From: Eledone cirrhosa
Taxonomy: Eukaryota
Assembly: GCA_964016885.1 (NCBI GenBank)
Contig: OZ024747.1
Coordinates: 25,730,001-25,794,000, forward strand
Direction of reading: 5' to 3'
DNA length: 64,000 bases
Shown here in pieces: positions 2,549 to 58,139 of the stretch. Every line of letters begins with the position of its first letter. Within the stretch, counting starts at the first letter, position 1. The position numbers were made by a program, and so were the translations under genes. The notes beneath the pieces were generated by a model. It was not told the origin of the DNA and made no database searches. It worked only from the letters and a program-made list of their open reading frames with translations.

Positions 2549-2798
2549 TGACTGTATATACACCTGTATAGATACAGAAACATATGCATGAGTACACATA
2601 TAACTAAAAAATATTTCTGCTCATGTTATAACCATACACGAGTTGAACATCTTTTTTTAGGTGAAACATGTGTTCTGAAGTATGGTTTTGTAATTGTGAA
2701 ATTAAATCTATACCCAACTCTTCATTTGGACTGAGTGCTCTGCCAACTTTGGATATAGCCTTTTTATTTTTCACTACACTATATATATATATATATAC

Positions 2799-2829
<31 letters not shown>

Positions 2830-5800
2830 GTTATAGGGAATGATCACAGCATATTCTATATTTTTATGAGATTGGCACCTTCCAGCCCTTTTAAAGTCGA
2901 GCACTCTTCAGTCAATAGGATTTTAAACCAATACTGAACATGGATAAATACCCTTTGGATTACTCTATCAAGAATATCCCAACACCTTCTAACATTTTCT
3001 ACACGAAAATGCTGATAGACAAAGTAGAGAAGGTCGTTAAAAGAATGAGATGGAAAGCTTTGATTCTCGATGGACACTTTAACATGGACTCTACGGAACA
3101 TTTTGATATCAAAACTCATAAATACCCGCAAAGAGTAAAAGATATGACCGCTTTTGAACTAGACTTAGATAATCTAATCAACAATATCAATTTTCGTAAG
3201 TACTCTAACCCTTTTCAATCTAAACTATCTAATGATATTTCAATATTCAAATCTTCTAAAAATAAGTTCATTTTCTCCGACAAAACTAAAAACCTATACG
3301 AAGTTAATAATAATTTACACGACCAAATATTAATAGATAACATCACCTCTAAATACCAAATAGCTAATATAAACAATTAAAGAATTAGCTGTTTCTTTAA
3401 AAATAGATAATAGGACAGAACAACTTGCTAAACGTAATGAATATATCACCCTTAAAGATCACAAACCTGACTTAATTAATCGTCCTAGTTGTAGATTAAT
3501 CAACCCTGCTAAGACTGATATCGGTCTTGCCAGCAAAAAAATTTTAAATAATATAAACACACACATTAGAAGTAAGTCTAAATTACTCCAATGGATAAAT
3601 AGCTCTTCCGTAGTACATTGGTTTAATAAAATTAAAGATAAAAATAGTTCTAGATTCACCCAATTTGACATTGTAGATTTCTAACCATCTATCACTCAGA
3701 CTCTTTTAACGAAAGCTTTAAATTTCGCTAGAAAGTTTACCAATATCTCTGATATTGAAGAGAATGTCATCTTGCACGCTAGAAACACTCTACTCTTTAC
3801 TGATAATGACACTTGGGTAAAAATATCTAACCCAGAGAGCCCATTCGATGTCTCAATGGGCTCTTTTGATAGTGCTTATGTTTGTGATTTAGTCGGCCTA
3901 TTCCTCCTACACACACTTAAAGAAAAATTCCCTAACCATATTTTTGGGCTTTATCGCGACGATGGTCTAATACTTTCCCATACCACCATAGGCCATAAAT
4001 TAGATAGATTAAGGAAAGACTTAATAAAAACCTTTGCTAGTTTTAATCTTAAAATTGCTATTGACACTAACCTTTCCAATGTTAATTTCCTAGATATAAA
4101 CCTAGATTTGCCTACTGCTTCTTATAAACCATACCATAAACCTAATGAAAATTTAAAATATATAAATAAAGGCTCTTGCCATCCTCCTATAATTTTTAAA
4201 AATCTTATCCCTAATATTAGCCGTAGGATCTCCACCCTCTCTTCCTCAGAAGCTATTTTCAATAAGGCATCCCCCTACTATAATAAAGCCCTCCAAAATA
4301 GCGGATTTAGCGAACCGATTAAATACATACCCAACTATACTAACTCTTTTAAACATAAAAATAGGAAAAGAAAAAATAATCTGGTTCACACCCCTAGCAG
4401 TTACAATTAATGTAGGCAAAAAATTCCTAGAGCTCTTAGATAAACATTTCCCTAGAACACATAGATACTATAAGATCTTCAATAGAAACTGTGTCAAAAT
4501 TAGCTACAGTCCCCCTATTAAATCTTATATCATCAACAACAAATCACCTAGAGAACATCAAAATTGCTCCTGTAGAGTCAAAAGTGAATGCCCATTACAA
4601 GGTAAATGCAACACCAAAGCCATTGTATATGCGGCTAAAGTGACAACCATCAGCAACAACCAACCAGCCACCAGTGAACGATATGTGGGTATGACACAAG
4701 ACAAATTCAAAACGCGTTATTACTCACATGTCGCATCCTTTCGACATCCAGAAAAAAGATTCACAACAGCTCTGGCTAGCAGAATATGGGATTTGAAAGA
4801 CCAAGGTATCCAATATAAATTGGATTGGTCAATTTTGAACCAATCTAAAGAATATGCAAGAGGAACAAGAAAATGCACACTCTGCATACATGAAAAATAT
4901 TGGATTTTACAAAACCCTAAAATCACCAAAGGCCTGCCTAAATACAAAGACAGAAATTTTCACCAGTTGCCCACACATGAAATCACACTTGCTTTCCAGC
5001 TCATATAAACTTAACTCACTTTCAGATACTTATCCTCCATAGGCTCTTATTCTTCACTTAAATTGTTCTCTTTAAAGACTACTCTTTCTGATTTACTTTC
5101 TTTTTAACCTTATTATTAATTTTATTTTAATTTTTATTTTTACTTCACATCCACCAGTAACCCCCCCCCCTTTATTCTTCTATTCACTTACCTAATATCT
5201 TCACTTTCCACTTTTTACTTCCCTATTTTCTTTACTATCTGATTACCCTAGTCACTTGCGTTTTCCACTCCAGATATTTTCTGTTATTTCGCAGCCAATT
5301 TTATATTTTTATATTTGTACTCATATATTCATAAGGCTGCTTTACACCCTGTATCTATGTGTCTGAGCGTCTTTATGTGTGTATACGTTCTGTATATGTA
5401 CACGAACGCCTCCGTATGTGCGCGTGCGTGCGTGTATATATATGTGTATGTATGTGCGTTTTTATATCTGTGTTTTTACATCTATGTTTTTTACATTCTT
5501 ATTTTTATGTGTGTGCGTGTAAGCGGGTCAATGTACGTGAATATGTTTGTGTGTATGTGTGTATATATGTATTGTATGTATGGGCGTGTATGTGTGCGTG
5601 TATATATATATATATATATATATATAGTCGCGTACGTACGTGTGATTAGATATACATGGGGCGATATGTATGTATATATATATGTGCATCCTGTGTATGT
5701 ATGTACGCATGCATACGCTTTTGTCTGTACGTATTGCGTGTGTATTTATATATATTTTTATAGATGTGTTTTTTATAGATATAGATTATCATTTTCTTTT

Positions 5801-6181
5801 TCAACTCATATTATATCCGTATTTGTGGTTACATATACACAAATATACTTGCCCTCATATATGTACTTACGCACACATTTTCACCATACACACGCATTTG
5901 TACATACATACATATGTACATTTGTGAGTGTATATACATACATATACACACACCTAACTATATTTCCTTATATTTTTTTATATATTTTATATGTCTATTG
6001 CATTACTTTTATTTATATATATATATTTTTTTTTTGCATTTCTTGAGGAGACTTTCCAAATATTTCACTATGTTTTATATTGCCTTGTCCGACGAACGAA
6101 CGAGGACGTTTCTTTCGTATTCGTCTTATTCGGGAAACCTCTGGTAATGAGGTAATTATATTGTATTGTTTATTATACATT
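2830..6181 (+). mobile_element. Near full-length, decayed Penelope-like element (Naiad-like)
   Basis: Broken ORF 2940-5042: YSIKNIP..KRMRWKA, LKDHK, QFDIVDF, MGSFDSA, YRDDGL, NFLDI. Linker CSCRVKSECPLQGKC, then GIY-YIG IVY..YVGMT..FKTRYYSH..CTLCIHEK. Hammerhead at 6089-6154; (TA)n on both sides. Confidence 0.9.
6089..6154 (+). ncRNA. Hammerhead in the PLE 3' region (U4C variant, weak stem I)
   Basis: CCGACGA-ACGAA..TTCGG-GAAA-CCTC(TGGTAAT)GAGG-TA^. Confidence 0.6.
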
Positions 6182-10261: not shown

Positions 10262-13185
10262 GTATTATACATCGACATTTATTCCCTTCTTTTGTTTGAC
10301 AAAAAGGTATATATATATATATATATTGTATCTTCTCGACTTTAGACGTAACGCACGATTACGTTGCAGGTTATTTATATTTCGCCGGAGAATTGAGTCC
10401 GGTCGAGAAATGTTTCACGTTGTTTCTTTTAACTCATTGTAAATCTCAACATTTTTATACTATAACTATATTTGTTTGTGTCGTGTATATTAGACATCCG
10501 TCAGTTACGACGATCAGCATTACAGAACAGCTTACTCGTGAAGTTAATGTGTCTAAGCCTTTCACAGACACGTGTACTCTTGACATAGCTCTCAGGGAAA
10601 TTCAGCATGACACAATGCTTGACCACACTGCCATTTAAATTACAGGCACGGTCCATCTTGTATTGTAGTCTAAGTGGCCGAGAATTTCATACATGTATCC
10701 TCTCAGTGGGATTCGGGATGTCACTGTGTAATAAAACCGATCCTTTGAATTATAGGTACAATTAATTTTCCCAGACGAATGGACTAGAATAGCGTGAAAT
10801 AAAGTGTTCTGTTTAAAGACACAACGTATAGTTGAGAATTGAATTCAAGACTTTACCATCGTGAACTGAACACTCTACCCACATGGGTGGATTGGCAGTA
10901 TCGGTAGAGGGTCGGACGCCATGCTTTGACACATTGAGTTACGACCCTTGCCCTTCTGAGTTTAAATCCCGCCGAGGTTAACTTTGCCTTTCATCCTTAC
11001 GGGGGGGGGGGTTTGATAAAATAAAGTACCAGTAATGTACTAGGTAATTGCTGGCCTTGTGCCAATAGTAGAAACCATTATTATCAATTTGGTGGATTAG
11101 CAATATTGTTAGAAGGTCGGACGCCATACTTTGCAGCATGGAGTTACGGACCTTTACAATCTGAGTTCAAATCCCGCCGAGGTTAACTTTGCCTTTCATC
11201 CTTACAGTGTCGATAAAATAAAGTACCAGTCACGCACTGGAGTCGATTTAATTGACTTTTCCCTCCCCCAATATACTGACCTGTGCCTACACTAGAAACC
11301 ATTATTATCAAGGGCGGTAGAGTGGTGGATTGGCAGTATCGGTAGAGGTGTCGGACACCATGCTTTGCAGTACAGAGTTACGGCCTTTTATGATCTGAGT
11401 TCAAATCACGCCGAGGTTAACTTTACCTTTCATCCTTACGGAGTCGATAAAATAAAGTACCAGTAATGCACTGGGATAATTGCTGGCCTTTTGCCAAAAG
11501 TAGAAACAATTATTATCAATTTGGTGTTGAAGCTATTCTACTTTATTTATACATTGTATATATGAAAGGACCCATAACTCCCGAGGGAGTCGTAGGATTC
11601 GCCGTATTGACAAACAGCGCTTCTAGGGCATTTAAAAAACCTGGTGGAGCTCATCTCCAGCAAATTTCTTCTTGAGAAGGATAGAGAGTGAGAGAATTGA
11701 AGCGAGAAAGAGATGTAAGAGAATCGACCCCAGTACTAGACTAGTACTATTTTTATCGACCTTGAATGTATGAAAGGTGAAGTTGACGTCGTCGGGATTT
11801 GAACTCAGAGAGCCAAAATGAACACCACAAAGCACTATATCCGTCGTTCTAACGATTCTGTCAATTCGCCGCCTATTACATTAGGGGTATAAATAAAATA
11901 GTCTTGAGCGTCTCACAATCTAATTTGGCGTACATAATAAAATGAAAATGAACGGCACTTGATTGATCTGTATATGTAATTTCCGAGTGATTTATTAGGA
12001 ATAGAAAAGGAAATATCACATGCTTGGACATCACTTTATCCCTTTCCAGCATATCTGCAGTAAATTTGAGAATGATTTATTAGTAAATGAAAATATTAAA
12101 TAAAAATTAAATTATGTTTGATAATAAATGAATAAAATTTAAAAGAAAATTATTTTAATTGATTTAAATGGATATAAAATGAAATTATTGTTCGAAAATA
12201 TTCGTAAACGAAATAACTGTTTCTACTTTTGGCACAAGGCCAGCAATAACCCAGTGCATTACTGGTACTTTATTTTATCGACCCGTAAGGATGAAAGGCA
12301 AAGTTAACCTCGACGGGATTTGAACTCAGATCGTAATGGGACGTAACTATGCTGGAAAGCATGGCGTCCGACCTTCTACCGATACTAACGCCATGTAACT
12401 TCAATTCCTTACAAATCTACATCATTGTACATAAAAAAACGAATCAAGTATAGCCAGTATATTATTAGTTTACATACAAGTCAAACAATGAATACAGGCA
12501 CTTATTTGATAGATATGGAATGTTGTTCAATAAAATCTATAGAAAAATAAAGCAGAATTGGAAAGGACTAAATTCTAGTTAATATTTCAGCTCTTACTGA
12601 ATTCACTGAACGCTATAACAATTTAATGGCGTAGGGTGAGGGCCATATGTGGTCACTCGACGTGCTAGAAATAGCAGTCAAATCTCCCTCAAATTCCATA
12701 TCTACCGGTTTTAATGTGGACACATTCGACAATGTGGTCATGAATACATAATCTCTAACGAAACAGCCACCTCGTGAAATTTACGTGCAAATATCCTCCC
12801 TTATACTGTCACGTTGCTCAAGCCCACAGAAGCCTGCAGAATATGAGTACCAGCAGTAGCTGGAGGGTTAACTCTGCGATGTACTGGCGTACCCTCCAGG
12901 GTGAAATCTTGTATTCTCAGTCACTTAACGCCAATGGAACCGGGTAAGCTCTGACCTTTTGAGCCTCCATGTTTGGAATATACTTTTAATTAAGTTTAGC
13001 CACTCACTCCCGACAGGTAAGGGAAATTAAACGGTTTAAATTGAAAATATAAGGGAAGTAACTGTAAACATTAGCAATATCTTATTTGCCAAAGTTCGAT
13101 AACCTCTTCCCTGTTGAAATTTTTTTTATTGTTTACAGAAATTCTTAGGCTATTTTCTATAGCTTCGAAAACTAACACACACACA

Positions 13186-15059: not shown

Positions 15060-18000
15060 AGTTTGCTGCCCTCCTCTTCTTACCTAGTGACACAATAAAT
15101 GAATCCTTGGTTCCGGAGAGGGACCTCATTAAATTTGGAAGGGAATGCCCACAAACAATCCAAGTAGATAGCGTATATGTCTTATGCAAAGACGACAACA
15201 ACACATACCTGGGGAAATAGATATATATTCCTTACACAACCCTACTCAACAACTAAATACAACAAATGTAAACTATCAAAACCGCCCCAGGAAAAATGCA
15301 GTTACTCAATAAAATTAAAGCCCACTCATGTTTGGAACCCACTAATTTTCATAACAATAACTGAGTGATTATAATAAGCATTTTCTCTCTCTCTCTCACT
15401 GTGTCCATGTGATGGTACATGGCTTAGTTGTTTGAGTATTTTGGTTTACTATCACAAGTTCAAGAGTTGAATTCTTGGCTGCACACACACACATATATAT
15501 AATACCTTTACCCTACATATAATAATAATAATATACCTTGTGGTATTTGTTTATGGTCTTCATATTCTATTTTCAAATCTTACCATGTTCAACTTTGCTA
15601 TTCATATTTCCGCAGTTGATAAAATAAAGTATAAGTCAATACTTGGGTCAATTTAACCAACAGTGGTGCTCTCCACATAAGCTTTGGGCTTTCCTTAAAG
15701 GCCCCACTCGGTCACGAATGACCATGGTTTTGCACCTAGAAAGTTTCCCTCCAAGGCACAAGCCTGGGCAAAGTTTGTTTTGTGGAAGACCAGTAGTCGC
15801 CTATGCATACCAGTATCCCCTCTCCACACCACCGATGTCTAAGGGAAAGGCAATGACTGATACAGCTTGGCACCAGTGACATCGCAACTCATTTCTACAG
15901 CTGAGTAAACTGGAGCAACGTGAAATAAAGTGCCTTACTCAAGGACACAACGCATCACCCGATCCAAGAGTCAAACTCATAACCTCTCAATTGCAAGCCC
16001 AATGCTCTAACCACTAAGCCTTTGGGCTTATATAAGAAATTATTAGGGTCATGGATTAGCAGAGTTGTTAGAGCGTTAGATAAAATGCTTTGTGGTATAC
16101 CTTCTGTCATTTTAGTTTGCCTTTCATCTTTAAAAGCTTGATAAACTAAAGCAACGGTCGCCAATCTTTTGGACCTCACAGACCACTAAATTCATAATTT
16201 TAAATCCCGTAGATCACTAATATGAATTTTTTTTAAAAAGATAAATACATTTGTAAAATAATGATCAGAAAACTTCCATTTTATTAATATGAAATGCACC
16301 TATTAAATATAAAAAATTCTAAATCCTTATTTAATTATAACAAAATTATGGATGCCTATGTAATCATAACAAAATCTTTAAAGTAAATAATGTCCAAATT
16401 TTTCTGCAGGCCACCAAAATTTTCTCTCGGACCACCGGTTGGTGACCGCTGAACTAAAGTATCAGTCAAGTACTAGGGCCAATTAAATTGACCTTCACCT
16501 ACACTGCAAAAATTGTTGACCTTGTGACTAAATTAGAAATTATTATTTCTTTTAGTGAGAGGGTGGCAGATGGGTAAAAGCTTTGCAGCATTTAGTTAGA
16601 TTCTGAGTTCAAATATTGCAAATGTCAGCTTTGCTTTCCATCCTTCTTGGCACGATAAAATAAGTACCAGTAAAGTACTGGAGTCAATTTAATCAACATT
16701 CTCTTCCTCCCATATTACTGGCCTTATGCCTAAATTAAAAACATATTTCTGTTAGTGGGAGTCATCTATTATTATCTTTGGAAACAAGTTACAGTGTGTC
16801 CTATTACTAAAAGAGATGATTATTTAAACCCAGTTAACTAGCAACAGACTAACCAGCCAACCAAACATCCTCACTTGTGACATCTCACATCTCAAAGTTA
16901 ATGGAAACATCTGTCAACCATCACATCCTTCAACACCTTGAGTCTCTCTTTCTTCTGATTCTATCTGAAGATTTTATGTTAATACTGTGCAATACTCAGC
17001 TACTTATAATATAATTTAATGATCAAACAACTGTAACATTTGTTCATTGAAATTGACTGGAGTGTTCATCATGCACACACAAACATACACACAGACACAG
17101 ACACATCTGTGTGTGTGTGTTTATATATATATATATATAACTGAACAAAAAGGAAAAACGAACAGAGATATATATATATGTGTTCAAATCGTAATGGACC
17201 AAAATCGCAGAGCTCCAACCAGACAGAGAGTAACCTGGTGGTGGAACAGCACAGTAGATAAGGCTATTAGAGACAAAAGACTAGCATGGAAGGCTTGGAA
17301 AAAGGGTGGGAGTAGGGAAGAATATACAGCCACTAAGAGAGAAGCTAGACGTCAGGTGTACTTAGCACGCAGGGAGGCAGAGAGTAGGAGGTTTGCCAAT
17401 GTTCTGCGACGGGAAGATCAGAGGCGTGCGGTGTTCCACATTGCAAGGCAGTGTGTCAATGCAAATCAGGATGTTGTTGGAGATAAATGTGTCCGGGATG
17501 ATGCCGGTGTACTTAGTGTCACGAATGATCAGAAAAAGGAGGCCTGGAAATGTCATTATGAGAGACTGATGAATGTGGAGAACGAATGCGAGAGAGAGAA
17601 ATTACCCTTGGTAGATCCGACAGAGGGACCAGCTATTGAGATTGACGAATATAGGGTCCAAGAGGCGATTAGGGAAATGAAAAATGGTAAGGCGGCCGGA
17701 CCATTGGGAATAGTTGCTGAGATGCTGAAGGCATCAGGGGACGTAGGCACTAAACTGGTTGCACGCATCATCATGGTGGTGTCATACCCAAAGACTGGTG
17801 CAGCAGTATTCTCATAAATTGCTACAAAGGTAAAGGGGATGCTTTGGAGAGGAGCAATTATAGGGGTATAAAACTGATAGATCAGGTTATGAAAGTGGCA
17901 GAAAGGATTTTAGCACAACTAATTAGAGAAAGGGTCAAACTAGATGAGATGCAGTTTGGTTTTGTGCCTGGGAAGAGTACAACAGATGCCCTCTTCTTGG

Positions 18001-20557
18001 TGAGACAAATGCAAGAGAGGTTCTTAGAGAAGAATAAGTCACTATACTTAGCCTTTGTTGACCTAGAGAAGGCCTTTGATAGGGTACCCCGATCTGTCAT
18101 CTGGTGGTCCCTAAGGAAGCTAGGTGTTGAGGAATGGCTTGTGAGGACAGTGCAAACTTTGTACAGAGGTACTCTCAGTAAAGTCAGGGTAGGAATGGAG
18201 TTTAGTGAGGAATTCCAGATACAAGTAGGAGTACATCAGGGCTCGGTCCTCAGCCCGCTCCTGTTCATTATAGTCCTCCAAGCCATAACAGAGGAGTTTA
18301 AGACTGGCTGTCCATGGGAACTTCTCTATGCTGACGATCTGGTTCTTATAGCAGAATCAGTAGAGGAGCTAGAGAATAAATTCTGGCTATGGAAACAGCA
18401 GTTGGAAGCAAGAGGACTGAGAGTGAATCTAGCCAAGACAAAAGTGTTGATGAGTAGAAAAAAAGGACAAAACCCTGATTCCGTCAGGGAAATGGCCATG
18501 TTCGATATGCAGAAAAGGAACTGGCATAAATTCTATAAAATGCACACAATGCAGATCCTGGGTACACAAGAGATGTAGCGGGATAGCAGGCAAACTAACA
18601 GGTAGGGAGAAATATGTATGCAGTAGATGTACAGGGAAATTAGACAGTAGAAGTCGCACTGATAGACACATTTTTCAAATGCAAGAGGGCGCTATAGAAG
18701 TGGTGGATAGCTTCCGGTACCTAGGAGATCAGATTAGCATGGGAGGAGGGTGTTCCGAGGCCATAGTATCTAGAATAAGGACGGGTTGGAAGAAGTTTAG
18801 GGAGCTGCTTCCTCTGTTGATGAAGAAGGGTTTCTCCCTGTGTACGAAAGGCCGGTTGTATGATGCCTGTGTGAGGAGCGCGATGCTGCATGGTAGTGAG
18901 ACATGGGCAGCAACTGCAGGGGATATGCGACGGCTGGAGAGAAATGAGGCAAGCTTGCTCCATTGGATGTGCAGTGTAAATGTGCGTGAACGACCCAGCA
19001 TAAATGTGTTGAGAGAGAAACTGTGTCTGAGAGGGATAGAATGTAGTGTACGGGAGAGGAGACTGAGGTGGTATGGACATGTGATGCGCATGGAGGATGA
19101 CCGATGGGTGAAGAAGTGCCAGGAAATGCCAGTTGAAGGAAGACGTGGTAGAGGTAGACCACGAAAAACATGGGCGGAGGTGGTGAGAACAGACCTCAGA
19201 TCATTGAAGCTCACGGTGGAGATGACGAGGGACCGTGACGAGTGGAGAGATGCTGTGCTGAATAAGACCCGTCCCACCCTTGCAAGCAGGGAAAAGCGGA
19301 CGTAAAATGATGATGATGATGATGATAGTATATATATATATATATAGTATATATATATATAGTATATATATATATAGTATATATATATATATATATAGTA
19401 TATATATATATATATTGTAGGAATCCTATAATGAAACGAGACGTCCATCTGGGAAGAGATATATTCGATATGTCTCATATGAAATAATACAGCCAATTTT
19501 CCATGCAATACTTTTAGTTAGAACCCCGAACGCTTAATTAGGAATATAATCACTTATTTCCTAATGTTTGTTGAGTGAGTTCGAATTTGGCTGGAGTATC
19601 GCTAAAAAGCTTTCTCCGATATTGTATTTATTTATTTACTCTTGGTCCAACAGATTTGAAATTCCCGGTATAAGGTTAGCCTTTCTTTGTTTATTTTTTT
19701 ATATATGAATATTGATTGTTCCTTGTATCTCATTCTGTTATTTTGCCCGAGAAAATATTTGTGTGTCATCAAACGTTGTACACACATAGATATTTTTTCA
19801 ATTTCCAATTGAGTTCTAGCACGTGGCCTGAATTCCTTTTAGAGTTCATTGTCATGCGCATGTATTGTTTTTTTTTTTGCGGTAATTTACTTCCTCATTT
19901 TTGAATCAGTTTGAGCATTTCTTTAGAACTGCTGGACTGGCAACCTGACAGATACCTCAGGTACTGACGATGATTATCGCTAAATGCTGATGTTGATTAG
20001 ACTATCAATATTATTATTATTGGGGCACCCACTGATGAATTATAGGAGCCCACTTGAATATATATCTATTGATGGTATACAAGCTCCTACATAAATTGGT
20101 ATAATTTCACCAAAATTATAGGAATCCTATGATGAAACGAGACGTCCGTCTGGGAAGAGATATATTCGATATGTCCCATATGAAATAATACAGCCAATTT
20201 TCCACGCAATACTTTTAGTTAGCACCCCAAACGCTTAATTAGGAATATAATCACTTATTTCCTAATGTTTGTTGAGTGAGTTGGAATTTGGCCGGAGTAT
20301 CGCTAAAAAGCTTTCTCTGGTATTGTATTTATATATATATATATAGTTTTGATAGCGCTAGTCTGTAATTTAAATTCAGGAATTTTATATTCTTTGAATG
20401 AAAAGAACCTTCTGACGAGAATCTTTCTTTGCAACGAAGGCCGTATGGTCTCCGTTTTATTTTTGGGATTCGAAACCGATCGGTAAAGGTAACTATAGTA
20501 GGTAAAGTCAATTTTTTAAAATTTATTTTGAAACTTTTTCATTATTTGCTAAACCTT

Positions 20558-20593
<36 letters not shown>

Positions 20594-25637: not shown

Positions 25638-28496
25638 CTGATGCTTGATATGTATGTATGTATGTGTGTGTGATGGTTGGAATCTATAAGTGTGTGTTTG
25701 TGTGTATATGTATATATGTATGTGTGTATATGTATGTGAGTATTAGTATGTATGTGTGTATATGTGTGTGAGGTTTAGTATGTATATGTATGTGATGCTT
25801 CTTATGTATATGTGTACATGCATGAGATGTTTGATATATATGTCTATATATATGATGTTCGATATGTATGTGTGATACTTTGTCTCTCTCACTCTTCAAG
25901 GCCTTCCCTATTATGTCATTTGGTCTCTCAGAGTGTTGTTATTATGACAAAAAGCACCCAGTCCACCCTGTAAGGTAACTGTATAGAGGCCAAGACAAAA
26001 ATTACCCAATCCACACTATAAGGTGGTCATACTGACAAATTTAGTAGCACCGCGTTGTCTGCTAATTCCAGCTAACTGATCCTCAACCACTTGACACCAC
26101 TTCCAACTTGGCTGTGCATGTCAATCCTATTCATGAAGATTAAAAACTGCAGAGGTTACAATATGATAAATTCTTCATTATTTCCAAATTGAATTGAAGC
26201 ATATTGGCAGCGTCATTTATTAGAAATATGGTATCAAAATGGTTAATAGGAGTGATTTTTGCTCCTGTGATGATAAAAATGAAATTCTTGGGGGTGAAAG
26301 TGAAAGATAATTTAATTGAGGTGGCAGGAACAACAAATATATTCATGCACTGATTAAAACAAATTAAATTATTTTCAAATTGCTCATCAATAGCTTTGAA
26401 ACATGTTTTAGAGTTTGTATAATGTGTTGTGTGGAATTGACCAGTGGGAAATTCAATGGGGCAGGGATGGATGTTTGGCATTCAGAACACTCTCCCGCAC
26501 TTTAAAGGTGGTTACACATTCATGCACTACTCAGTTCTTGTATGTGTATGAAGTATAAGTGGGTTTTATTTTTGTCTTATTATTCATTAATCATTGTTAT
26601 TTCTTTGAGTACTGCCGTGCTTCTTAATTTTTACACTTGTTCCTTGATTGAAGTATAGAGACAATGGCTTCTCTAGTCACTTCTCTACTCACTTAATTGA
26701 ATCACTCAATTACTTTTTGTACTTTATACTTCTTAACATTATAATAGAGTTTCAAATGTTAAAAAAAACAATAAAGAAATTCATAGGTAAGCAATGCTAA
26801 CACATGTATATGATGCAAGACAGGCCTAGTCCTCAAGAATGAAGCTGCTTAAAATTAGTCTTCTGCTGCTAAGATGGTGATAGGATTATTATGTTTAGAA
26901 TGGTTTTAGTATGTTTTAGCTACTGAAATAGCACCATTAATTGTTTTAATTAAAAAAGTGTCCTGATGATTTACATGATTGTGATGAAATGACAACTTGT
27001 ATAATTAGCATCCTAATGGTCTCTAATTATGGCCCAAAGCTAGCAGTTTGGTAGAAGGGGAAAATTTAATTAAATCAATCCCAGTACGTGGTTGGAGCTA
27101 TATTTTATTGGCTTCTGATGGATGAAGGGCAAAATTGACCTTGATGAGTGTCCAAGGCTCATTAGTAATGTAAAGTGGAAAAAATGGTATTATTGTTTGG
27201 CAGTATCGGTAGAGGGTCGGACGCCATGCTTTCCAGCATAGTTACGTCCCTTTACGATCTGACTTCAAATCCCGCCGAGGTTGACTTTGCCTTTCATCCT
27301 TACGGGGTCGATAAAATAAAGTACCAGTAATGCACTGGGTAATTGCTGGTCCTGAGCCTAAAGTAGAAACAATTATTGTTATTATTATAATTATTTGAAA
27401 TTTTCTTTGAATTCTTCTTTCTCATATCATGCTGAGTGTCAATCTGACACATGAGGCAAATTTTGGTAATACACACATTTTACAATCAATTGCCGTACAA
27501 ATGATGTCATAAGGGCATAAAGAAAGTAAATGTCCTTCTCAGGACATGGACTGTGCCAGTGAGCACTATTTTCTGTATCTTGCAGAGATGGCTTTCCAGG
27601 TATCTGGTCCAAATATTTTTCAGTTTCCTTTTTTATCCTTCCAAGTGCACCTATTATCACTGGTATTGTACAGGCCTTAAGATGCCACATTCTCTTAATT
27701 TCAATTGTCAGATCTTTATATTAACTGACCTTTCGGAACTCTTTTGAGGAGATGTTACAATCTGATTAACATTATTGTTAATTGTTTAATCACGGTGACT
27801 TGGCAGTATCGGTAGAGGGTCGGACGCCATGCTTTGACGCATAGAGTTACGTCTGTTGCCCTTCTGAGTTCAAATCCCGCCGAGGTTAACTTTGCCTTTC
27901 ATCCTTGCGGGGTCGATAAAATAAAGTACCAGTAATGTACTGGGTAATTGTTGGCTTTGTGCCAATAGTAGGAACAATTATTGTTAATTGTTTTTGTTAT
28001 TGTGTATTTTTACTCGATTTTATTGTAAACTCCACTGTCCCTGTCTTTGTATTATTCCCTATATGTTGGCCCTTGTGACCAATAAATGAAACCATCTAAT
28101 AATAATTGTTTTTAGTATAGGCACAAGGCCAGTAATTAGGGGGGAGGGGAAAGTCGATTAAATCAACCCCAGTATGTTACTGGTGCTTTATTTTATCGAT
28201 CCCGTAAGGATGGAAGGCAAAGCTAACCTCGGCGGGATTTGAACTCGGACCGTAAAGGGCCGTAACTCTGTGCTGCAAAGCATGGTGTCCGTCGCTCTAC
28301 CGATACTACCAATCCACTGCCCTCCACCGTTTATAATAATAATAATTGTTTCTACTTTTTGCACAAGGCCAGCAATTATCCCAGTGTATTACTGGTACTT
28401 TATTTTATCGACCCCGTAAGGATGAAAGGCAAAGTTAACCTCGACGGGATTTGAACTCAGACTATAAAGCGCCCGATACTGCCAATCCACCGCCTT

Positions 28497-28531
<35 letters not shown>

Positions 28532-31500
28532 AAATTATTGTGTACAGTGCTCAGGTGCACTACAACTCATGTTGGTATTGGTAGTAGTGGTGGTTGTTGG
28601 TGTGATGTTGGGGGTGTATCAGTGGTAGTGGTTGTAGTGGGGGTGGTGATGGTTGTGGTAGTGGTGATAGTTGTAGTAGCAATGGTGATGGTGGTGGTGG
28701 TGATTGTAATAGGGGTGTTTGTTGTAGTAGCTATGAAGGTGTGGTAGTGGTGATGGTTGTGATACTACCCCACCTATCACCACTACCACAACCAACACCA
28801 CTTCTACAACAAACGCTACTACTACAACCATCACTACCACAACCAACACCACTACTACAACCATCACTACCACAACCAACACCACTACTACAACCATCAC
28901 TACCACAACCACAACCAACACCACTACTACAACCAACACCACTACTACAACCATCACCACTACTACTACCCTCACTACCACTACTACAACCACAACCGCT
29001 ACTACAACAACACTACTACGAAGACCGTAAAGGACCGTAACTCTGTGCTGCAAAGCATGGTCTCTGGTGCTCTACTGATACTGTCAACTATTATTAATAT
29101 TATTATATAAGGGCGGTGGATTGGCAGTATCGGTAGAGAGTTGGACGCCATGCTTTCCAGCATAGTTACGTCCCTTTATGGTCTGAGTTCAAATCCCACC
29201 GAGGTTGACTTTGCCTTTCATCCTTACGGGGTCGATAAAATAAAGTACCAGTAATGCACTGTGTAATTGCTGGCCTTGTGCCAAAAGTAGAAACAATTAT
29301 TAATATTATTGTGGGGGATTGGCAGAATCATGAAAGCATCATACAAAATGCTTTGTAGTATTTAGTTACAGCATTGTATGTATTTAGTTCAAATCTTACT
29401 ATGGTCAACTTTGCCTTTTGTGTTGATAACATAGAGTACCAATCAAGTACTGGGTCAATTTAATTGACTTTTCCCTAAAATTGCTGGCTTATGCCTAAAT
29501 TAGAAACCCTTATTGTTGTTATTTAGAATCCTGGCTGGGCCTTACTGTACAATGATTCTAGCAGACATGGGAGCAGAAGTAATTAAAGTCGAGAGACCAG
29601 GTAAGTTTTTTTGCATTTGGCCTTTTTTGTTTCTTTGTACTATTAGTGTATATGTGTGTTTTTGAATATGTGTTTGTGTGAGTGTGTATGTGTGTTTTTA
29701 TATGTGTGTGGATGCATTGCTGAATGGTTAAGAAGTTCACCTTGCAATGATAAGGTCCTAGATTAGATACCATTGTGTGTCATCTTTGACAATTGTTATT
29801 TACTATAGCCTCAGATTGACTCAAATCTTGTGAGGGAAATTGGTCAGACAGAAACTGTATAGAAGCCCATTAAATGGATTATGCTTGTATTTCAAAATGC
29901 CACCCATATCATGCTCTGTGTCATGATGAATCTCCTGAGAATTCCATTATGGGAACACATGACTATGATTTCGATAAAATAAAGTACCAGTGAAGTATTG
30001 GGCTGATTCAATTACTTTCTTTTTCAATCTAAAATTGCTGTCCTTGTGTCTAAATTATAATCCATTATTGTTATTATTATTATTAGAGTGTAGGACACCA
30101 TGCTTTGCAGCATATAATTACGTCCCTTTACATTCTGAGGTTAAATCCCACCGAGGTTAGCTTTGCCTTTCATCATTACAGGGTTGATAAAATAAAGTAC
30201 CTGTACTGCACTGGGGTCGATACAATTGACTTTCTTCTCCCCCAAATGGTCTTGTGCCTAAATCAGAAATAATAACAACAATAATAATATTTCTAGTTTT
30301 GGCACAAGGCCAGCAATTACCCCAGTGTATTACTGGTACTTTATTTTATCGATCCCGTAAGGACACAAAGTCAACCTCGGCGGGATTTGAACTCAGATCG
30401 TAAAGGGACGTAACTATGCTGGAGAGCATGGCCAGTATGTTACTGGTACTTTATTTTATCGACCCTGTAAGGATGAAAGGCAAAGTTAACCTCGGCGGAA
30501 TTTGAACTCAGAATGCAAAGGGCCATAACTCTATGCTACGAAGCTTGGTGTCTGATGCTCTACCGACACTGCCAATTCACTGCCCAAACAACAATAATAA
30601 TAATAATAATTATTATTGTTGTTATTATTATCATCGCGTCTATTATTTCCAGGTTGTGGAGATGACACACGGTCATGGGGTCCACCATTTCGGAGTTCGG
30701 AGAGTACCTATTTCCTCTCAGTCAACCGGAATAAAAAGGTTAGTAATTCTGTGCTTTCTGTGTGTGTGTTGTGTGTGTGTGTGTGTGTCTTTGTGAATCT
30801 TTGTATCTATATCTCTCTCATTCTGCTTCTCCCCCCCTCTCTATATATATGTCTGTGTGTGTTGTGTGTGTGTCTTTGTGAATCTTTGTATCTATATCTC
30901 TCTCATTCTGCTTCTCCCCCCCTCTCTATATATATGTCTGTGTGTGTTGTGTGTGTGTCTTTGTGAATCTTTGTATCTATATCTCTCTCATCTGCTTATC
31001 TCCCCCCCCTCTCTATATATATGTCTGTGTGTGTTGTGTGTGTGTCTTTGTGAATCTTTGTATCTATATCTCTCTCATCTGCTTATCTCTCTCTCTCCCT
31101 CTCCTCCCCCCTCTTTATATTTATGTGTGCGTGTGTGAATGTGTTGCATTGTTTTTGTGAAATTTCCATCATTGTTTTTTTTTAATTTCCAGAGTATTGC
31201 TGTTGATATAAAGACACCCGAAGGAAGAGATTTAATCAGAAAGGTAGCGAGGTCTTTCATTCTATTTCTTTCTTTCCTTGGTTTTATATATGTATGCAGA
31301 CATGGGTTTAACCCTTTAACATTCATATTACTCTATATATACTATTATATTTTCATGGTAAAGGCTTTACCTCACATAATTATCTCACATAATATCGAAT
31401 CTGTGAGATTTTGAAAGTATTTATTTTGAGAACAATACCTTAACATCAGTTTGAGTGACCAGTTACAGCCAGTTTCAACAGAAAAAGGTAGAGAATTCTG

Positions 31501-37500: not shown

Positions 37501-39248
37501 CTGATGAAGGATGAAAGTGACTAGAGGAGAGGAATAGAACCAGTGACTAAAGTTGCGAACATACATGGAATGAGATGGTTGGGTCATGTGTTGAGGAAGT
37601 ATGAAAATGACTGGGTAAGAGAAATAGAACCAGTGATGAATATTATGAAGAAAAATGGAATGAGATGTTTAGATCATGTATTGAGGAAGTATGAAGGTAA
37701 CTGGGTGATAGGAATAGAACCAGTGGAATGAGGTGAAAGTGACTGAGTGAGTGGAGTGGTGGAAATGAATGTAGAAGGAAGTAGAGGAAGGGGAAAATGA
37801 AGAAAAACCTGACTAAAGATGATGGGGAAGAAATGAAAGCCAGATATAAGGAGGGGATATAGCCAATAGGGTAAAGTGGAGAAATTTGTCATAGGGCCTG
37901 CAAAGCTAAACCCTGCTTTAATAGAAAAAATGGCCTTGACTTTTTTTTATAGCAATCCAGACAAAAATAGCTCTGGTTCTATGAAACAAAACCTCACATT
38001 TAAAAGGGTTCTTATTAAATTAAAATCTTCCAACATAATTATATATAAGAAAAAATTCTTAAGCTATTATGTTAGTAATGAAATAATTACCAGTCTGGCC
38101 ACAACTGGCTCTGCTTCTACGAAAAAACTCAGACATTTTAAATGGCTCCTATTTAAATTTCAATCTTTCGAGTAAATTTTATATAGGAAACATAAGTTAC
38201 TAATAATAGTACTGAAATAATGAATAATTTTCATAAATCCCTCAAAATTATTAATTAATTAAAATAGAGTGTATTCCATTAGAAATACAGACATGAAATG
38301 GTTAACATACTTGTTGTTTCCTCCACATATTCACCACATCCCTCCCAGGCTCTATCATATTTACATTGCTATCTAATTCTTCTCATTTTGCTCACTCTGA
38401 TCTGATCTAGGCATTTACAACATCTGATGGCTACCTGCTGGTTGGTGCTAACAATGACAATCAATTCAAGGTTCTATGTAAGGTAAGTTGAAATACACAC
38501 ACATATATATATTTATATATATGCAAAAGTTCTATTTAAAATTGTTGGGATACAGCAAGTAAATATTTTATAACTGATATAAAGCACTCGACAAGTTTTT
38601 GGAGTAGATATACGATATTAAATAAATGGAAACTATATTTATAAAACCATATTTATTTCATTATACATATTTCAGGGATACCAAATTAAAATATGGTATG
38701 CCTTCATCAGACAAAATACAATATATAAACAGTTTTATAAATAATTTTGACGTACCCTATTAAATGCAACCATTATTTTTGGAAGCTGTCTGGATAGTGA
38801 GATGTTTATAATTATTTTATTAGTTATAGTGTTAAACACAGTTAGAAAAAGACGGAGATACATTTCTCTCTCTCTGATATTTCTCCAGGTTTTCTTTTTC
38901 TCTCTCTCCTTCTTTTTCTCTCTCTCCGTTTTTTCTTTCTCTGTCTTTTTCTAACTGTGCTTAACACTATAACTAATAAAATAATTACAAACATCTCACT
39001 ATCCAGACAGCTTCCAAAAATAATGGTTGCATTTAATAGGGTACGTCAACATTATTTATAAAACTGTTTATATATTGTATTTTGTCTGATGAAGGCATAC
39101 CATATTTTAATTTGGTATCCCTGAAATATGTATAATGAAATAAATATGGTTTTATAAATATAGTTTCCATTTATTTAATATCGTATATTTATATATATAT
39201 ATTTATATATATATATTTATATATCTATATAAATATATATATATTTAT

Positions 39249-39286
<38 letters not shown>

Positions 39287-42282
39287 TTAATACAATAACA
39301 GAGATAGCTTAAAGCTAAACTCTGACTGGTAACCATCTCACTCAACAAACATTAGGTTATATGTTGGTATAAACCCAATTTAAGTGTTGGGGTGATAACT
39401 ATATGTATTTTGTGGAAAGCCAGTTGTATTATTTTCTGAGATATAATTAAAGTTAAAATATATCTCTCTTTCCAAACAATTGTTTCATTATAAGTTTTCT
39501 ACAAATTGGGAGAATGTTTCCAGTTTATGTAGAAGCCTAACATATATTCATGTAAGAATATATTTAGGTGGGCGCTTATAAATCTTCAGTGGAAGCCCAT
39601 TAAACTTTGATATAAGAAAAATTCTTACCGCAGTTAAAAATCGTGTCTGCTAAGCTGCTCCCTCATGCATCGAATGACCGCCATATTTATATATAATTAG
39701 TTTTTTCAAAAAACATTATCAATCCAACGTGTTAAGAACTCAATTGAAATTAAAAAAATAAATGTATGCGTGTATTAATTACACACACTTATAGATATTT
39801 TCTTAGGCTAAAAACAGAAGTCGTACCTGAATAACAAACCGCATCTCATAACCGTAGTAAATACGGAAAGTTACGCTTTAAAGGGCAATTGGGAATGTAA
39901 ATCTCTGGCCGAATTAAGAGTAAAATATTAAATACATGCGGGTTAATTAGTTATTTCAAAACTAATATCAAATAAGAATATATTTAGGTGGGCGCTTATA
40001 AATCTTCAGTGGAAGCCCATTAAACTTTGATATAAGAAAAATTCTTACCGCAGTTAAAAATCGTGTCTGCTAAGCTGCTCCCTCACGCATCGAATGACCG
40101 CCATATATATATATATATATTTTCAACACAGTTGAAAATTGCAAACTTGACTGCCACGACACAATATGAACCTGAAGATTGCGAAAGCATGAAATTACTT
40201 GTTCAATTAACATTTAACATTTAATATTCTACCATACTATTTCATTCTAATACCATTATAAATTTTAAAGGATTGTAAATAAAACGAATAAATCAGACAA
40301 AGTTGGAATTCCTTTTATTAATATATATATATATATTTATATCATCATCATCATCGTTTCATGTCCATATTCCACGCTTGCATGGGTTTGGACGGGAGTT
40401 TTTCCACTTGAGGCAAGAGTGGTTGTCTTGCTCGCATAGGACTGTCTGGCGGGTTTTCTACGGCTGGATGCCCTTCCTAACACCAACCACGTTTACAGTG
40501 TGGACTGGGAGGTTTTTACCATGTTACCTACACGGCCACATTACAGCGTGGACTGTGTTTTTTTTTGTCATGACACCTACACGACCTCATTTGTTTCGGA
40601 CTGGATGTTGTGGTACCAACATAACTTTACATTGAAAGGGGTGGTGTGGATGGGGTGGGGGTAGTAGGACGGGGGTGTATTTTTGTTAGAGGTGCCTACT
40701 GACTGTAGTAGGTTTCACTTTGTACTTAGGTAAGGCGGGTCATCTGTATTACTGTGTAGCGCCAAAGAACTCGGTCCAGTGACATTGTCTTGGAGAGGTG
40801 TAAGTGTGTGAGGTCGGAATTTATCAAGTCGTCCCAGGTTTTTCTGGGTCTGCCTACTCCGTGGCTAATGTCTATTTTTATTGCCCTGCACTTTTTTATA
40901 CAGCTGTCGTCTTTCATGCGCATCACGTGACCATACCAACGTAGTCTTCTCTCGAGTAAACAACATCTGATCCCTCTTATTTCTAATTTTTCCCTTAGTT
41001 TGTTTATGCTTTGCCGTTCACGTATATTACTATTACACATCCGGCGGAGCATGCAAGCTTCATTCCTCTCCAATCTGCGTATATCCTCTGCACACAATGC
41101 CCAGGTCTCACTGCCATGTAATATTTCTGTTCATATGCAGGCATCATACAGCCTGCCTTTCATTTTTAGAGAGAACCCTTTAGCGGCTAATAGTGGTATA
41201 AGCTCTCTGAACTTTTTCCATCCAGTTCTGACTCTAGCTACTGTACTTTCAGAGCACCCTCCCTCACTTCTGATTTTGTCACCCAGGTAACGGAAGCTGT
41301 CCTCTATTTCTATAGAACCATCTGTGCAATGGAATGAGCTAGTATTTTGTGGGCACTTGCTGCTACTTATTGCACCTGAGCACCGGCCACATGTAAAATC
41401 TATGTTCTTAGTTAGCTTACCTGTGATCTCACTACATCTTTTATGCACCCATACTTTGCATTTGGGATATAAAATGGAGTTTCTACCTACTCCTTTCCTA
41501 CACACTGAGCATGGCCATTTACCGGATGGGACGGTGCCCTATTTTCCTTCCTACAAACTAGAACTTTAGTCTTAGACAGGTTAATTTTAAGGCCTTTTGA
41601 TTCTAGGCCATGCTTCCATGTTTGGAATTTCTTCTCTAGTTCGGCCATTAATTCAGCTATGAGCGTTAGATCATCATCTGCGTATAAGAGTTCCCATGGG
41701 CAGCCGGTCTTGAACTCCACTGTTATAGCCTGAAGAGCAATAATAAATAGTAGGGGGCTAAGAACGGAGCCCTGATGAACACCACATATACATAAACTAA
41801 ACAGAGCCATAGATATATATATGTGGTTTTGGTAACCATTCACGATTTGACTCAATGACGAATTAATTAATTAAATAATCGACAATCAGAGCAATATACA
41901 AGAAAGTATGTCCATAGAATCATTTGATAAAATATATACAGTATTTCCTCTCCCAATCAGCATAATCAACCACACAAAAGTCAATTAAACAAGGCTATAA
42001 GATTAAAAGGCAGGCACCTATGAAGAAACAATAGATAAATAAACGATGGCTATTTTATTCGCGATCAACAGCCACAGAATATTTACCTAGTATTTCTAAT
42101 AGCCCGTGGAAATCGATTAGATATATAGCCAATCCATACACAATTAGGTACAAAATAAAAGTTAGAAGAAAAAATGTACATTATAGCCTTGTTTAATTGA
42201 TTTTTGTCTGGTTGATTATGCTGATTGCGAGAGGAAATACTGTATATATTTTATCAAATGATTCTATGGACGTATTTTCTTG

Positions 42283-42611: not shown

Positions 42612-45328
42612 AAAATATATATATATATATATATAGTATTAGTTATACTATTTATGGTTATGTAAATACAAAACCTTATGCAGTTATAAGTATTTTTTAT
42701 ACACACCCTAAATAGTGGTAGGCAGTAATCTATTACTACCTTATTACCAGTAAGTTAAGTAGCTCAATGTAAAAACATCAGATGATTTACAGAGCAGTTA
42801 TATGAAATATAAGAATCAAAGAACTGTTCAAAACATTATTGTGCTTACAGCTGTTTCCTCCAAACCGAGGTTTGGATTCTTCGGAGCAATTTATTAATGA
42901 ATGGACAGTTATATGACCTCCTTTTCAGCCAAGAGACATACCGATACATATGCAAACATTGTGGGTCAACATTCATTACAGAATTTAGAGTGGCAGTACA
43001 CACTTCGAGATTACATTTATATTAAGAGGTACAATCAAAAATCAAAAATACAGGTTAAAATACAACGTGAAGATAAGCGGTTATATAGTGCAAATGTTAT
43101 ATGTGTGGCAAGCATGTGCGTCTTGTTTATATAGTGTGGCAGAGAGATATGTGTGGTAGAGGCACTTAGGTAGGTAAACAAGAGTGTTAGGTTGGTAGAT
43201 CTGGTGGCAAATTCTTTATATGATTGATATAGTCCGTGTGTGGAGAAATGTTATAAGCATTAAAAATAGTGCAAGCATTAAAAGTGTTAAAAGTATTGGA
43301 GATGCACAGCGAAGGGATGTCAAGTATTTCATGTACTTCGACATTTTCATGGTCAGGGGAGTGTATTTTTCGATTATATGCCCCTCACATAATCCACGAC
43401 AATTCGATATTGAGCGTTTGACAATCCAGTTAGAGAATCGTAGTCTGATGTTCTTTAGTTCAAAACAGGAGGCTGTTACGTTTCGAGAAACGACATTGAA
43501 TACCACCCGGAAGTGTGTGTGTGGCTAAGGGGAGTTAATGCATGCGGGGAGGTAACTCCGGGGTTTCTATACCTAGCTATTAAAATGTGTCACAATATAG
43601 ACCCTAATTTCTATGGTGATGCGCATCCTCCAAAAAATTTTTAAAGCATAAAGTGTATTAACTATAGAGTAGTTTAATTAAGTTATGCTGAAGGTGTTCA
43701 TATTATTATGGTGGATTAACCCCCATCGTAAGGTGCCACAAATGGATATTATAGATGATGAGCGAGGATTCTAAATTAATGATCTCTGTGGTTGTAGTCT
43801 ACTCATAGGACCAGGCGCGGTGATTGCAGGATTGCTTCAGGACCCAATGATCTCTGGTAAGTTCTGGGTCATCGCTTGCTACATTGGATGTCGAAAGATA
43901 ATCATCTCCAGGCCGGCCAGAGGTCAATCCGCAGTCCTCACGACCCCTCTCTGACCGCCAGATCATCCATATATGTACAACCCGCACGCCAGTTGCAATG
44001 CATTCATTCTCTGCACTCAGCATCCTGGTCCTACTGCTCAACTGCGTTACTAGATTAAATCGTTTTTCATCTGTCTATATATAAATATATATATATATTT
44101 ATATATATATACATATACACACACACACACACACATAGTGTATGTGATTAAGACACCTTATTCTACATTGCTCCAGTCAACTCAGCTGTTAAAAAGGAGT
44201 TAGGTATGTAATTCAATGAGCCAGCCTTGTCACATACTGTGTCACATACTGTGTCACATACTGTGTCACATACTGTGTCACATACTGTGTCACATACTGT
44301 GTCACATACTGTGTCACATACTGTGTCACATACTGTGTCACATACTGTGTCACATACGGTGTCACATACTGTGTCACATTGAATCTCCTTGATAGTCGTT
44401 GTTTGAACCAACAGAGGTAACACATGCAACACTGTACATGAGTATATGTGTGTGTCTGTGTGTCCATGTATGTGAGTGTCCATGTGCATATGTATGTATG
44501 CATGTAAATGTGCATGTGCATATATGTGCATGTGTTTGTGCATGTATATGCATGTGTGTGTCTTCATGTCTAAGTGTGAGTGTATGCATGTGTATGTTTG
44601 CGCATGTATATGTATGTGCATGTGTATGTATGTTCATGTGTGTGTGTGTGTGTGTGTGTGTGGGTATGTGTGTGTGTACATGTGTATGTGTGGGTATATG
44701 TGTGTGTGTGTGTGTGTGCGTATGTGTATTTGTGCATGCGTGTGTGTATGGTGTGCATGTATTTCTGCATGTGTTTATATTATGTGTTTATAATACATGA
44801 TACCGACTACTTTTGTGCTAACATGTAAGCTTCTTCTGAGATAAATCTGTGATTTCGTTTCAATTCTCTGAAATATTACATTAAATTCTCCACAGGAATG
44901 ATTCTCAGTATTTGTTTAAGAAGAATGTTGAATTATTTATGTATTGCAAGTCTTGTCATGTCGGGCTGACCTCATCTTCTCACCATCATCATATCTTCTC
45001 ATCTTCCTATCACATCCTCTTTCATTTTGTATTCTCTTAACAAATCTAATCCTCAAATTTGAATAAACCAATATATACATGCTTCAATTGCTGCACGTGT
45101 TTCTGTTCCACCCTTTTCTGTCATCAGTTGTATTTTACTTGACTTATTCAACTATTATTTATAGTTATCTTCATTGTGGTGGCTTCCCTAAAAAGCAAAT
45201 ATATTTTCAAGTGCACATGTATATATATATATATATATAATATATATATATTATATTTTAATCTATCTATCTATATATATATATTATATTTTAATCTATC
45301 TATCTATCTATATATATATATTATATTT

Positions 45329-56956: not shown

Positions 56957-57043
56957 TATATATATATATCGTGTAACCCATGCTAGTATGGAAGATAGAT
57001 GCTAAACGATGATGATGATTATATATATGATATATATATGTGT

Positions 57044-57516: not shown

Positions 57517-58139
57517 CCCTTTTCTTACCATATGTCAAATAAAAGACACTGCCTATGATTTTCAAATAATTTTGAAAATAATAAAGAATCTGAAGAGATT
57601 TACCGTATTTCCCGGCGTCGAAGAAGCTACCTTTTTCTTAAAGTAAGTCTCAAAAATCTTCCATGCATCCTGGAGGCCGAAGGTTGTTTATTATTTTTTT
57701 TCAAATTCAAAGGGTGGTGGATTGGCAGTATCGGTAGAGGGTCGGACGCCATGCTTTCCAGCATAGTTACGTCCCTTTACGATCTGAGTTCAAATCCCGC
57801 CGAGGTTGACTTTGCCTTTCATCCTTACGGGGTCGATAAAATAAAGTACCAGTAATGCACTGGGTAATTGCTGGCCTTGTGCCTAAAGTAGAAACAATTA
57901 TTTTTTTTCAAATTTTTGGTTGTCAAAATTAGGGTGCGTCCTCGAGGACGAAGCGTCTTTAGCGCCGGGAAAGACGGTATTTACATAAATAACTTTCTCG
58001 TTGTTAAGTTGGTATCTGAAGTGTAACTTAACAATTCTTACATAAAATTTTGCTGGAAGGTTTTTTTTAGATAAATATAAACATATTAAAACACACAGTA
58101 CTGTATCATAGAATGAAAGGCAGTTTGGCATCAAAAGGG
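57517..58139 (+). mobile_element. Nest: piggyBac-type MITE containing a pogo/Tc1-type MITE (57603-57977) containing a SINE (57711-57900)
   Basis: TTAA-CCCTTT..AAAGGG-TTAA; TA-CCGTATTTCCCGGCG..CGCCGGGAAAGACGG-TA; [24 protein letters not shown]. Confidence 0.8.

Follow-up and report, generated by a model that had tools for sequence, protein, structure and literature searches.

Penelope-like elements (PLEs) of the Hydra clade insert into (TA)n tracts and carry hammerhead ribozymes (Craig et al., 2021; PMC8557442), although insertion into (TA)n is not unique to this clade and is common to the Naiads (PMC8557442). The standard partial tandem of a PLE consists of a full downstream copy and a 5'-truncated upstream copy (PMC2377424). 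For a Poseidon PLE studied in vitro, an internal start of reverse transcription, the use of uncleaved RNA and a need of the hammerhead for the protein have been reported (PMC11167929). The choice of the internal start site by PLEs and the function of their hammerheads have been posed as open questions (PMC8557442, PMC11167929). Animal retrozymes, which also carry hammerheads, are now assigned to non-autonomous PLEs (bioRxiv 10.64898/2026.07.22.740005; PMC7229834). Because a short non-autonomous element retains nothing but cis-acting RNA parts, it shows which parts these are.

We analyzed a 64,000-nucleotide stretch of the Eledone cirrhosa genome (contig OZ024747.1, positions 25,730,001 to 25,794,000; the window), which is AT-rich and contains many microsatellites and decayed retroelements. 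On its plus strand, at 19417–20330, lies an element that we call E1, with (TA)n tracts at either side (Table 1). The period of E1 is 701: at this offset 191 of 200 positions match, compared with 46–61 at the 10 other offsets tried. E1 is a 1.30-mer, in which the 5' copy (19417–19629) differs from 20118–20330 at 11 of 213 nt, a divergence of ~5%. The 5' copy begins within the 3' strand of hairpin 2 of the ribozyme and lacks CUGAUGA as well as the 5' strands of stems I and II. An earlier note on this DNA had described a non-coding unit of about 700 bp that starts inside the ribozyme and runs through it again, and the period, the 213-nt copy and the lack of an ORF remnant bear out that description. 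A diverged relative, E2, ends at the base homologous to the E1 end, before (TA)n; over the ribozyme and the 3' part, the two differ at 97 of 310 aligned positions (~69% identity).

Table 1. Features of E1, its flanks and its relative E2 (positions in the window).
Position	Strand	Feature
19329..19416	.	5' flanking (TA)n tract; immediately follows the 3' tail of a LINE-type RT element
19417..19629	+	Pseudo-LTR, a 5'-truncated 3'-end copy; holds the 3' domain and, before it, only the 3' half of the hammerhead, in which a stem III pair is broken at 19447
19630..20330	+	Complete non-coding 701-nt unit (E1)
19749..19799	+	Long hairpin in the E1 body, formed by E2 too; 3 of 18 consensus pairs changed on both sides
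19809..19817	+	TTGAGTTCT, kept in E2; possibly a second Hydra-type motif (by-eye reading)
20023..20026	+	GGGC, 5' arm of the predicted pseudoknot, adjoins stem I
20028..20154	+	Type I hammerhead: stem I 20028-31/20151-54, core 20032-38, GAAA 20134-37, predicted cleavage after 20150
20039..20133	+	Branched domain II, 95 nt: basal stem 20039-47/20125-33, linker 20048-52, hairpin 1 20053-83, hairpin 2 20086-122
20048..20051	+	GCCC linker, 3' arm of the predicted pseudoknot
20137..20149	+	Stem III: 12-nt palindrome plus one extra A (E2: 8-nt palindrome); can pair as a dimer
20187..20329	+	Structured 3' domain, closing stem ends at the E1 3' end; covaries with E2
20223..20278	+	Bulged stem-loop, Hydra-clade type (CACCC..inner stem..TT GAGTG); GAG ends 53 nt before (TA)n
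20331..20345	.	(TA)n, 3' flank
39289..39972	-	E2, a diverged relative with the same body, hammerhead and 3' domain; its 3' end at (TA)n is homologous
39470-39594	-	E2 hammerhead: core CTGAAGA (39589), U.U at the stem II base, GUU site
39973..40104	-	Second copy of E2 sequence, 132 nt, 1 difference, stops inside hairpin 1

Both E1 and E2 lie at (TA)n, as Hydra-clade PLEs do, and E1 combines a full downstream copy with a 5'-truncated upstream copy. It is also a non-coding, low-GC, structured unit with a type I hammerhead, as retrozymes are. An autonomous PLE or other coding element at the locus was rejected, since E1 and E2 contain no RT or endonuclease ORF and none of RWK, DKT, CxCX5C or GIY-YIG; a six-frame comparison of both with a Hydra-clade PLE profile found no protein remnant (best E 0.2). 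We consider it probable that E1 is a copy of a non-autonomous, non-coding, retrozyme-like derivative of a Hydra-clade PLE. From this anatomy we infer the following route of mobilization. Transcription would give an RNA longer than one unit. The RT-endonuclease of an autonomous Hydra PLE would bind the structured 3' domain, with the bulged GAG stem-loop as the probable site, nick (TA)n and start reverse transcription inside the RNA, ~50 nt 3' of the GAG motif. Copying would then run backward across the hammerhead (uncut or re-ligated) and on through the body into the upstream repeat, with the RT dropping off inside the ribozyme, and the product would be a unit plus a 5'-truncated pseudo-LTR, i.e. 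a 1.3-mer. Within this element, loop II of the hammerhead would have grown into a multiloop with two hairpins, and a GCCC-GGGC pairing would supply the contact that links stem I to stem II and keep GGGC off the stem I strand. A Naiad partner was ranked below a Hydra-clade one, as Naiads lack canonical hammerheads. BLAST of E1 and E2 against the two PLEs of the window gave no match and therefore does not single out a partner PLE.

The earlier note had read the 1.3-mer as the expected outcome of copying a circular or tandem RNA. The partial tandem is real, but the 1.3-mer needs no circle, because a full copy plus a 5'-truncated copy is the normal partial tandem of a PLE; a circle would give the same product. 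It is in our judgment unlikely that E1 is a true non-LTR retrozyme, with genomic tandems cut to 701-nt monomers that are circularized and E1 representing 1.3 RT turns of such a circle. Both E1 copies do run through the cleavage site, and the unit size falls within the reported 51–972 bp (bioRxiv 10.64898/2026.07.22.740005). The cleavage-to-cleavage monomer folds well as a circle (z -5.4); whole-unit folding of E1 gives z -4 to -5.6, values equalled by 2 of 13 control stretches, and that of E2 only -1.5. Circles have been shown for coral, mussel and axolotl retrozymes (PMC7229834), and this reading does not exclude the PLE derivative that we prefer, as the same PLE enzyme would do the copying. 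However, the E1 locus holds only one complete ribozyme, a linear read-through template gives the same product, minimal PLE-type hammerheads are reported to cleave poorly (PMC4209133), and only 1 of 9 Xenopus dimers was cleaved (bioRxiv 10.64898/2026.07.22.740005). Neither is the extra piece at E2 what a circle would yield. This 132-nt piece is a template jump or a local duplication, not a copy of the 3' end, and because it was not copied from the 3' end, E2 does not show a junction of the E1 type.

In its workings E1 resembles a non-autonomous PLE. Like the animal non-LTR retrozymes (Cervera and de la Pena, 2020; PMC7229834; Li, Clavereau and Pollet, 2026; bioRxiv 10.64898/2026.07.22.740005), E1 is non-coding, of low GC content and equipped with a type I hammerhead, and it shares with them a unit of several hundred nucleotides and the proposed PLE origin and PLE-driven mobility. 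In contrast to them, E1 is not a full tandem, and its hammerhead is of the PLE type rather than a canonical loop1-loop2 ribozyme. Two consecutive complete units, by which retrozymes were recognized in the 2026 study, are not present at the E1 locus, where the 5' copy lacks CUGAUGA. The term "retrozyme-like" used in the earlier note therefore applies loosely, in that animal retrozymes are proposed to be non-autonomous PLE derivatives, but there is one complete ribozyme only. The Hydra-type stem-loop, the fixed 3' end and the pairing partner of the linker go beyond the description in that note. We also doubt the more elaborate proposal that the family is a circular RNA of 700 nt which parasitizes Hydra-clade PLEs and contains two new RNA modules, the branched hammerhead and the GAG stem-loop. 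As part of that doubtful proposal, the first module would present the pseudoknot arm on the branched domain II and thereby make a sluggish PLE ribozyme switchable or active as a monomer.

The junction between the two copies bears on another explanation, in which no non-autonomous family exists and E1 is the 5'-truncated 3' UTR end of an autonomous PLE, joined via TGTATTT microhomology to a re-primed short cDNA. We regard this as improbable. The junction lies exactly at the fixed 3' end; the 3' end of another subfamily runs 4 nt on into junction-like letters (TGTATTTATTT); no ORF remnant is left in E1; and the E1 body begins with features like those of a PLE 5' UTR, namely a possible second motif and a possible 3' splice site. 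In favor of a truncated PLE, an AT-rich 3' UTR of 1 kb precedes the hammerhead of a Hydra PLE in the window, and the two E1 copies are 5% divergent. E2 moreover shows what can be read as a template jump, and 35 nt of different sequence lie upstream of its counterpart of the E1 junction. A 79-nt intron may extend over the pseudo-LTR junction (19575–19653): the 5' copy contains GTGAGT, and the body has a pyrimidine tract with CAG; both candidate motifs are kept in E2, and the intron reading is speculative. A like placement of an intron across the pseudo-LTR junction is found in Penelope (75-nt intron) and Chlamys-3.

E1 belongs to a repeat family that is represented by 1338–1508 contigs per run in three runs of one sample. 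Loose ends of the contigs fall at the same 3' end as that of E1, and the hammerhead sits in a terminal repeat with a fixed 3' end. Gap-free contigs carrying 14–21 other letters span 20032–20182. The 3' domain has a far higher summed contig depth than the body, but other subfamilies map there and depth cannot rank the parts. The end-to-start joint of the E1 unit is not among the contig joints listed; such contigs speak to presence, not absence, and we do not take this as evidence against tandems. Exact-pattern scans gave 0 matches in metagenome, viral and prokaryote genome contigs, and a protein scan of viral contigs detected no relative.

The E1 hammerhead has a 4-bp stem I (CCCA/TGGG), CTGATGA at 20032, a 9-bp basal stem II, GAAAC at 20134 and, ending at 20150, GUC, with the predicted cut after it. 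E1 and E2 both show the type I arrangement of a CUGANGA and GAAA core, an NUH site (GUC in E1, GUU in E2) and three helices, open at stem I. A scan of the window returned 7 hammerhead candidates, compared with 0 in each of 10 shuffles under a slightly stricter filter (stem II of at least 4, stem I of at least 5). Rfam models gave no match at the gathering threshold. The minimal PLE hammerheads of Cervera and de la Pena (2014; PMC4209133) resemble that of E1 in a stem I of 4–5 bp, a stem II of 7–9 bp, a palindromic stem III and a poorly defined loop 1; E1 and E2 differ from them in a multibranched loop II of 77–80 nt, a predicted flank-linker pseudoknot and the absence of the G10.1-C11.1 pair. 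We view the E1 ribozyme as a PLE-type type I hammerhead with a short stem I and a palindromic stem III, likely assisted by dimerization or protein.

The likeness to Hydra-clade PLEs (Craig et al., 2021; PMC8557442) extends to the (TA)n targets, the partial tandem with a pseudo-LTR and a type I hammerhead near the 3' end with a palindromic stem III. Hammerheads of this clade commonly have U.U at the stem II base, and GUU sites occur; E2 has both. In the present analysis, a GAG stem-loop ~50 nt from the end is likewise common to these PLEs and to E1 and E2. In contrast to the PLEs, E1 has no ORF and its domain II is branched and 95–96 nt long in the two copies, whereas loop 2 of Hydra PLE hammerheads is given as 3–10 nt (table S2 of PMC8557442). 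Our own comparison set comprised 77 related Hydra-type loci from metagenome contigs (L001–L077), 21 of which yielded 24 sense-strand hammerheads; in these, domain II is a single hairpin of 12–25 nt. No DNA-level similarity linked E1 or E2 to any Hydra PLE locus compared (best E 0.04).

Domain II folds as a basal stem and two hairpins, 95 nt long in E1 and 96 in E2. Both hairpins and the GCCCAC linker lie where the earlier note had placed them, and its claim that the relative keeps the two hairpins was confirmed by the common fold. Compared with 200 shuffles, folding z of the branch is -3.8 in E1 and -4.0 in E2. The minimum-energy domain II of E2 is the basal stem plus two hairpins; for E1 as sequenced, an alternative fold is 1.5 kcal/mol better than the branched one. 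With the family-majority letters G at 20118 and A at 20131, which mend two weak pairs of the E1 copy, the branch becomes the E1 minimum (-26.9 kcal/mol). These letters occur in nearly all of the contig depth (three runs, one sample), and the 5' copy of E1 has them too. Because they restore the branch as the minimum, we take E1 to be a slightly decayed copy from a family with the branched fold.

Covariation between E1 and E2 was then considered pair by pair. Over stems I and II and the two hairpins, 14 of 23 pairs are identical, 5 show two-sided compensatory changes, 1 is compatible and 3 are broken in one copy. When stem III and the pseudoknot are added, 6 of 31 pairs are two-sided, a count reached in 7 of 500 shuffles and compared with 0–1 in slid controls; the counts come from two full copies, with the helices hand-drawn with both copies in view. 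The compensatory changes sit at junction-proximal pairs, and the linker and CT spacer are conserved between E1 and E2; the upper halves of the two hairpins differ between them in sequence and length. Among the 40 variants listed of 83 in the family, 19 were checked; pairing is kept or restored by every one of the 7 that lie in named helices. Run on E1 plus E2, RNAalifold recovered the 3' domain, the pseudoknot helix and a portion of hairpin 1, but not the hammerhead fold of the 5' half. The two-copy covariation provides good support for the branch, short of proof.

The large branched arm appears to have been kept by selection. The earlier note had proposed a selected branched domain of about 95 nt; its conserved fold and compensatory changes stand, and they come from two full copies and per-site variants rather than from a formal statistic. 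It is conceivable, although we lean somewhat against it, that loop II is tolerant and that the two hairpins in it are neutral insertions, kept only because they fold clear of the core and serving no specific role. Domain II is variously enlarged in other hammerheads of the window (20, 30, 36 and 53 nt), the upper hairpin halves have diverged as noted above, and PLE hammerheads are reported to vary widely (PMC4209133). E1 lies at the far end of this size series in its host, and its hairpins may simply be tolerated. The near-constant length of 95–96 nt, the conserved linker and CT spacer and the junction-proximal compensatory changes argue against neutrality, as do the gap-free contigs with 14–21 other letters, which cover 20032–20182. 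Neutrality bears on what the branch does rather than on what the element is, and it does not conflict with E1 being a Hydra-clade PLE derivative.

The conserved GCCC(A) linker is complementary to GGGC just 5' of stem I (4 pairs in E1, 5 in E2). Flanks drawn at random from the window do no worse than these arms in 125 of 20,000 cases for E1 and 17 of 20,000 for E2. Since all 4 pairs are invariant between E1 and E2, the pseudoknot draws its support from this complementarity and not from covariation. If the pseudoknot is left out, the same GGGG of E1 would form a hairpin with the stem I strand, and the active fold lies 3.9–6.6 kcal/mol above the minimum. With moderate confidence, we predict that the linker pairs with the flank as a pseudoknot between stems I and II. 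A helix linking these stems has been reported in ~40% of hammerheads of all three types (PMC3088659). The pseudoknot-stabilized hammerheads of Perreault et al. (2011; PMC3088659) are alike in the short helix that joins stems I and II; E1 differs in that its predicted 3' arm is part of a multiloop linker beside two hairpins. No such pseudoknot was found in the 24 hammerheads from 21 of the 77 Hydra-type loci.

The last 145 nt of E1 make up a domain that shows covariation with E2 and is closed by a stem ending at the terminus. Within it lies the bulged GAG stem-loop, which we compared with Hydra-type loci. Within 130 nt upstream of the ORF, the motif GCTC..YY-GAGCACT occurs in 37 of 50 such loci, compared with 4 of 262 ORF-internal windows. 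It is often present twice in the 5' UTR of Hydra PLEs, at about -85 and -25, and again 310–560 nt downstream of the ORF. Where a locus has copies both upstream and downstream, the sequence common to them ends 36–51 nt past the motif in 6 of 8 cases and after 6–7 nt in the other 2 (of 40 loci with room, 16 had a downstream motif and 11 of these an upstream copy; 3 whose match ran to the contig end were left out).

The window contains two decayed PLE ORFs (2919–5008 and 53860–55700) with RWK, DKT and CxCX5C, whose clade assignment rests on motifs and our own Hydra-clade profile, Pfam having given no family; by eye, a window ORF resembles Hydra-1_Obim in the supplement of PMC8557442. The ORF at 53860–55700 is followed by a hammerhead, the bulged stem-loop motif and (TA)n, 58 nt past the motif; the corresponding distance is 53 nt in E1 and 54 in E2. 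The E1 motif departs from the consensus in a C.A mismatch in the outer stem, in GAGTGAG and in a 44-nt interior. A relaxed motif is matched by E1 and E2, and by 5 and 6 of 1000 shuffles of their 3' segments. Nine of its 16 matches in the window lie 35–65 nt before (TA)4, compared with 745 of 20,000 random positions, the relaxed pattern and the 35–65 nt range having been set after the data were seen. We propose the bulged GAG stem-loop as a candidate RT recognition element in the Hydra clade. By a small margin, we also favor the broader proposal that PLE proteins bind such a stem-loop throughout the clade and that reverse transcription starts at a set distance (~35–60 nt) downstream. With the stem-loop and its roughly fixed distance from the 3' end, it becomes possible to test directly how templates are recognized in the Hydra clade.

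The decayed elements around these ORFs lie at 2700–5100 (+) and 52155–56960. The first has a (TA)n tract between two 5' UTR motifs, and a long inverted copy, truncated at its 5' end, precedes the second. ACTC..YY-GAGT[GA]CT is also found at the ends of other short elements (2733, 6617, 42461, 46841, 56895 and 62193 on the plus strand; 46747 and 38589 on the minus strand), 44–72 nt before (TA)n, and these may be read as further clients of Hydra-type PLE proteins.

Neither the branched domain II nor the GAG stem-loop was found described in the literature searched; Lunse et al. (2017), a catalogue of PLE hammerhead variants, may cover the former. The element class is already known; what is new here is probably a branched, probably pseudoknotted hammerhead in a non-autonomous Hydra-clade PLE derivative. 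Its domain II indicates how much structure the loop II of a natural hammerhead can carry. Short-loop descriptor searches and Rfam would miss such ribozymes, as Rfam did here, and therefore their number is probably underestimated.

Several other elements lie near E1 and E2. A second hammerhead family adjoins E1 at 20346–20560 (+; hammerhead at 20412) and recurs at 60340–60560 (+; hammerhead at ~60400). It has a domain II of 53–55 nt, a palindromic stem III and a covarying stem II, together with a conserved AAAGA/TCTTT match that may form a pseudoknot. Beside E2, an inverted pair of a hammerhead-bearing PLE end (38500–38860, minus strand, and 38938–39191, plus strand; 98% identical) has a domain II of 30 nt. 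Hammerhead-like motifs with a CCGA core variant occur at 42846–42890 (-) and ~6085–6150 (+). LINE-type RT remnants were seen at 17023–19326 (+), 40726–41870 (-) and 60463–61443 (+), the first of which has a terminal (GAT)n tail continuing into the (TA)n tract that holds E1. A very abundant SINE-like repeat of ~190 nt and longer is present in both orientations, at 10886–12386, 27197–30614 and 57708–58640 among other places.
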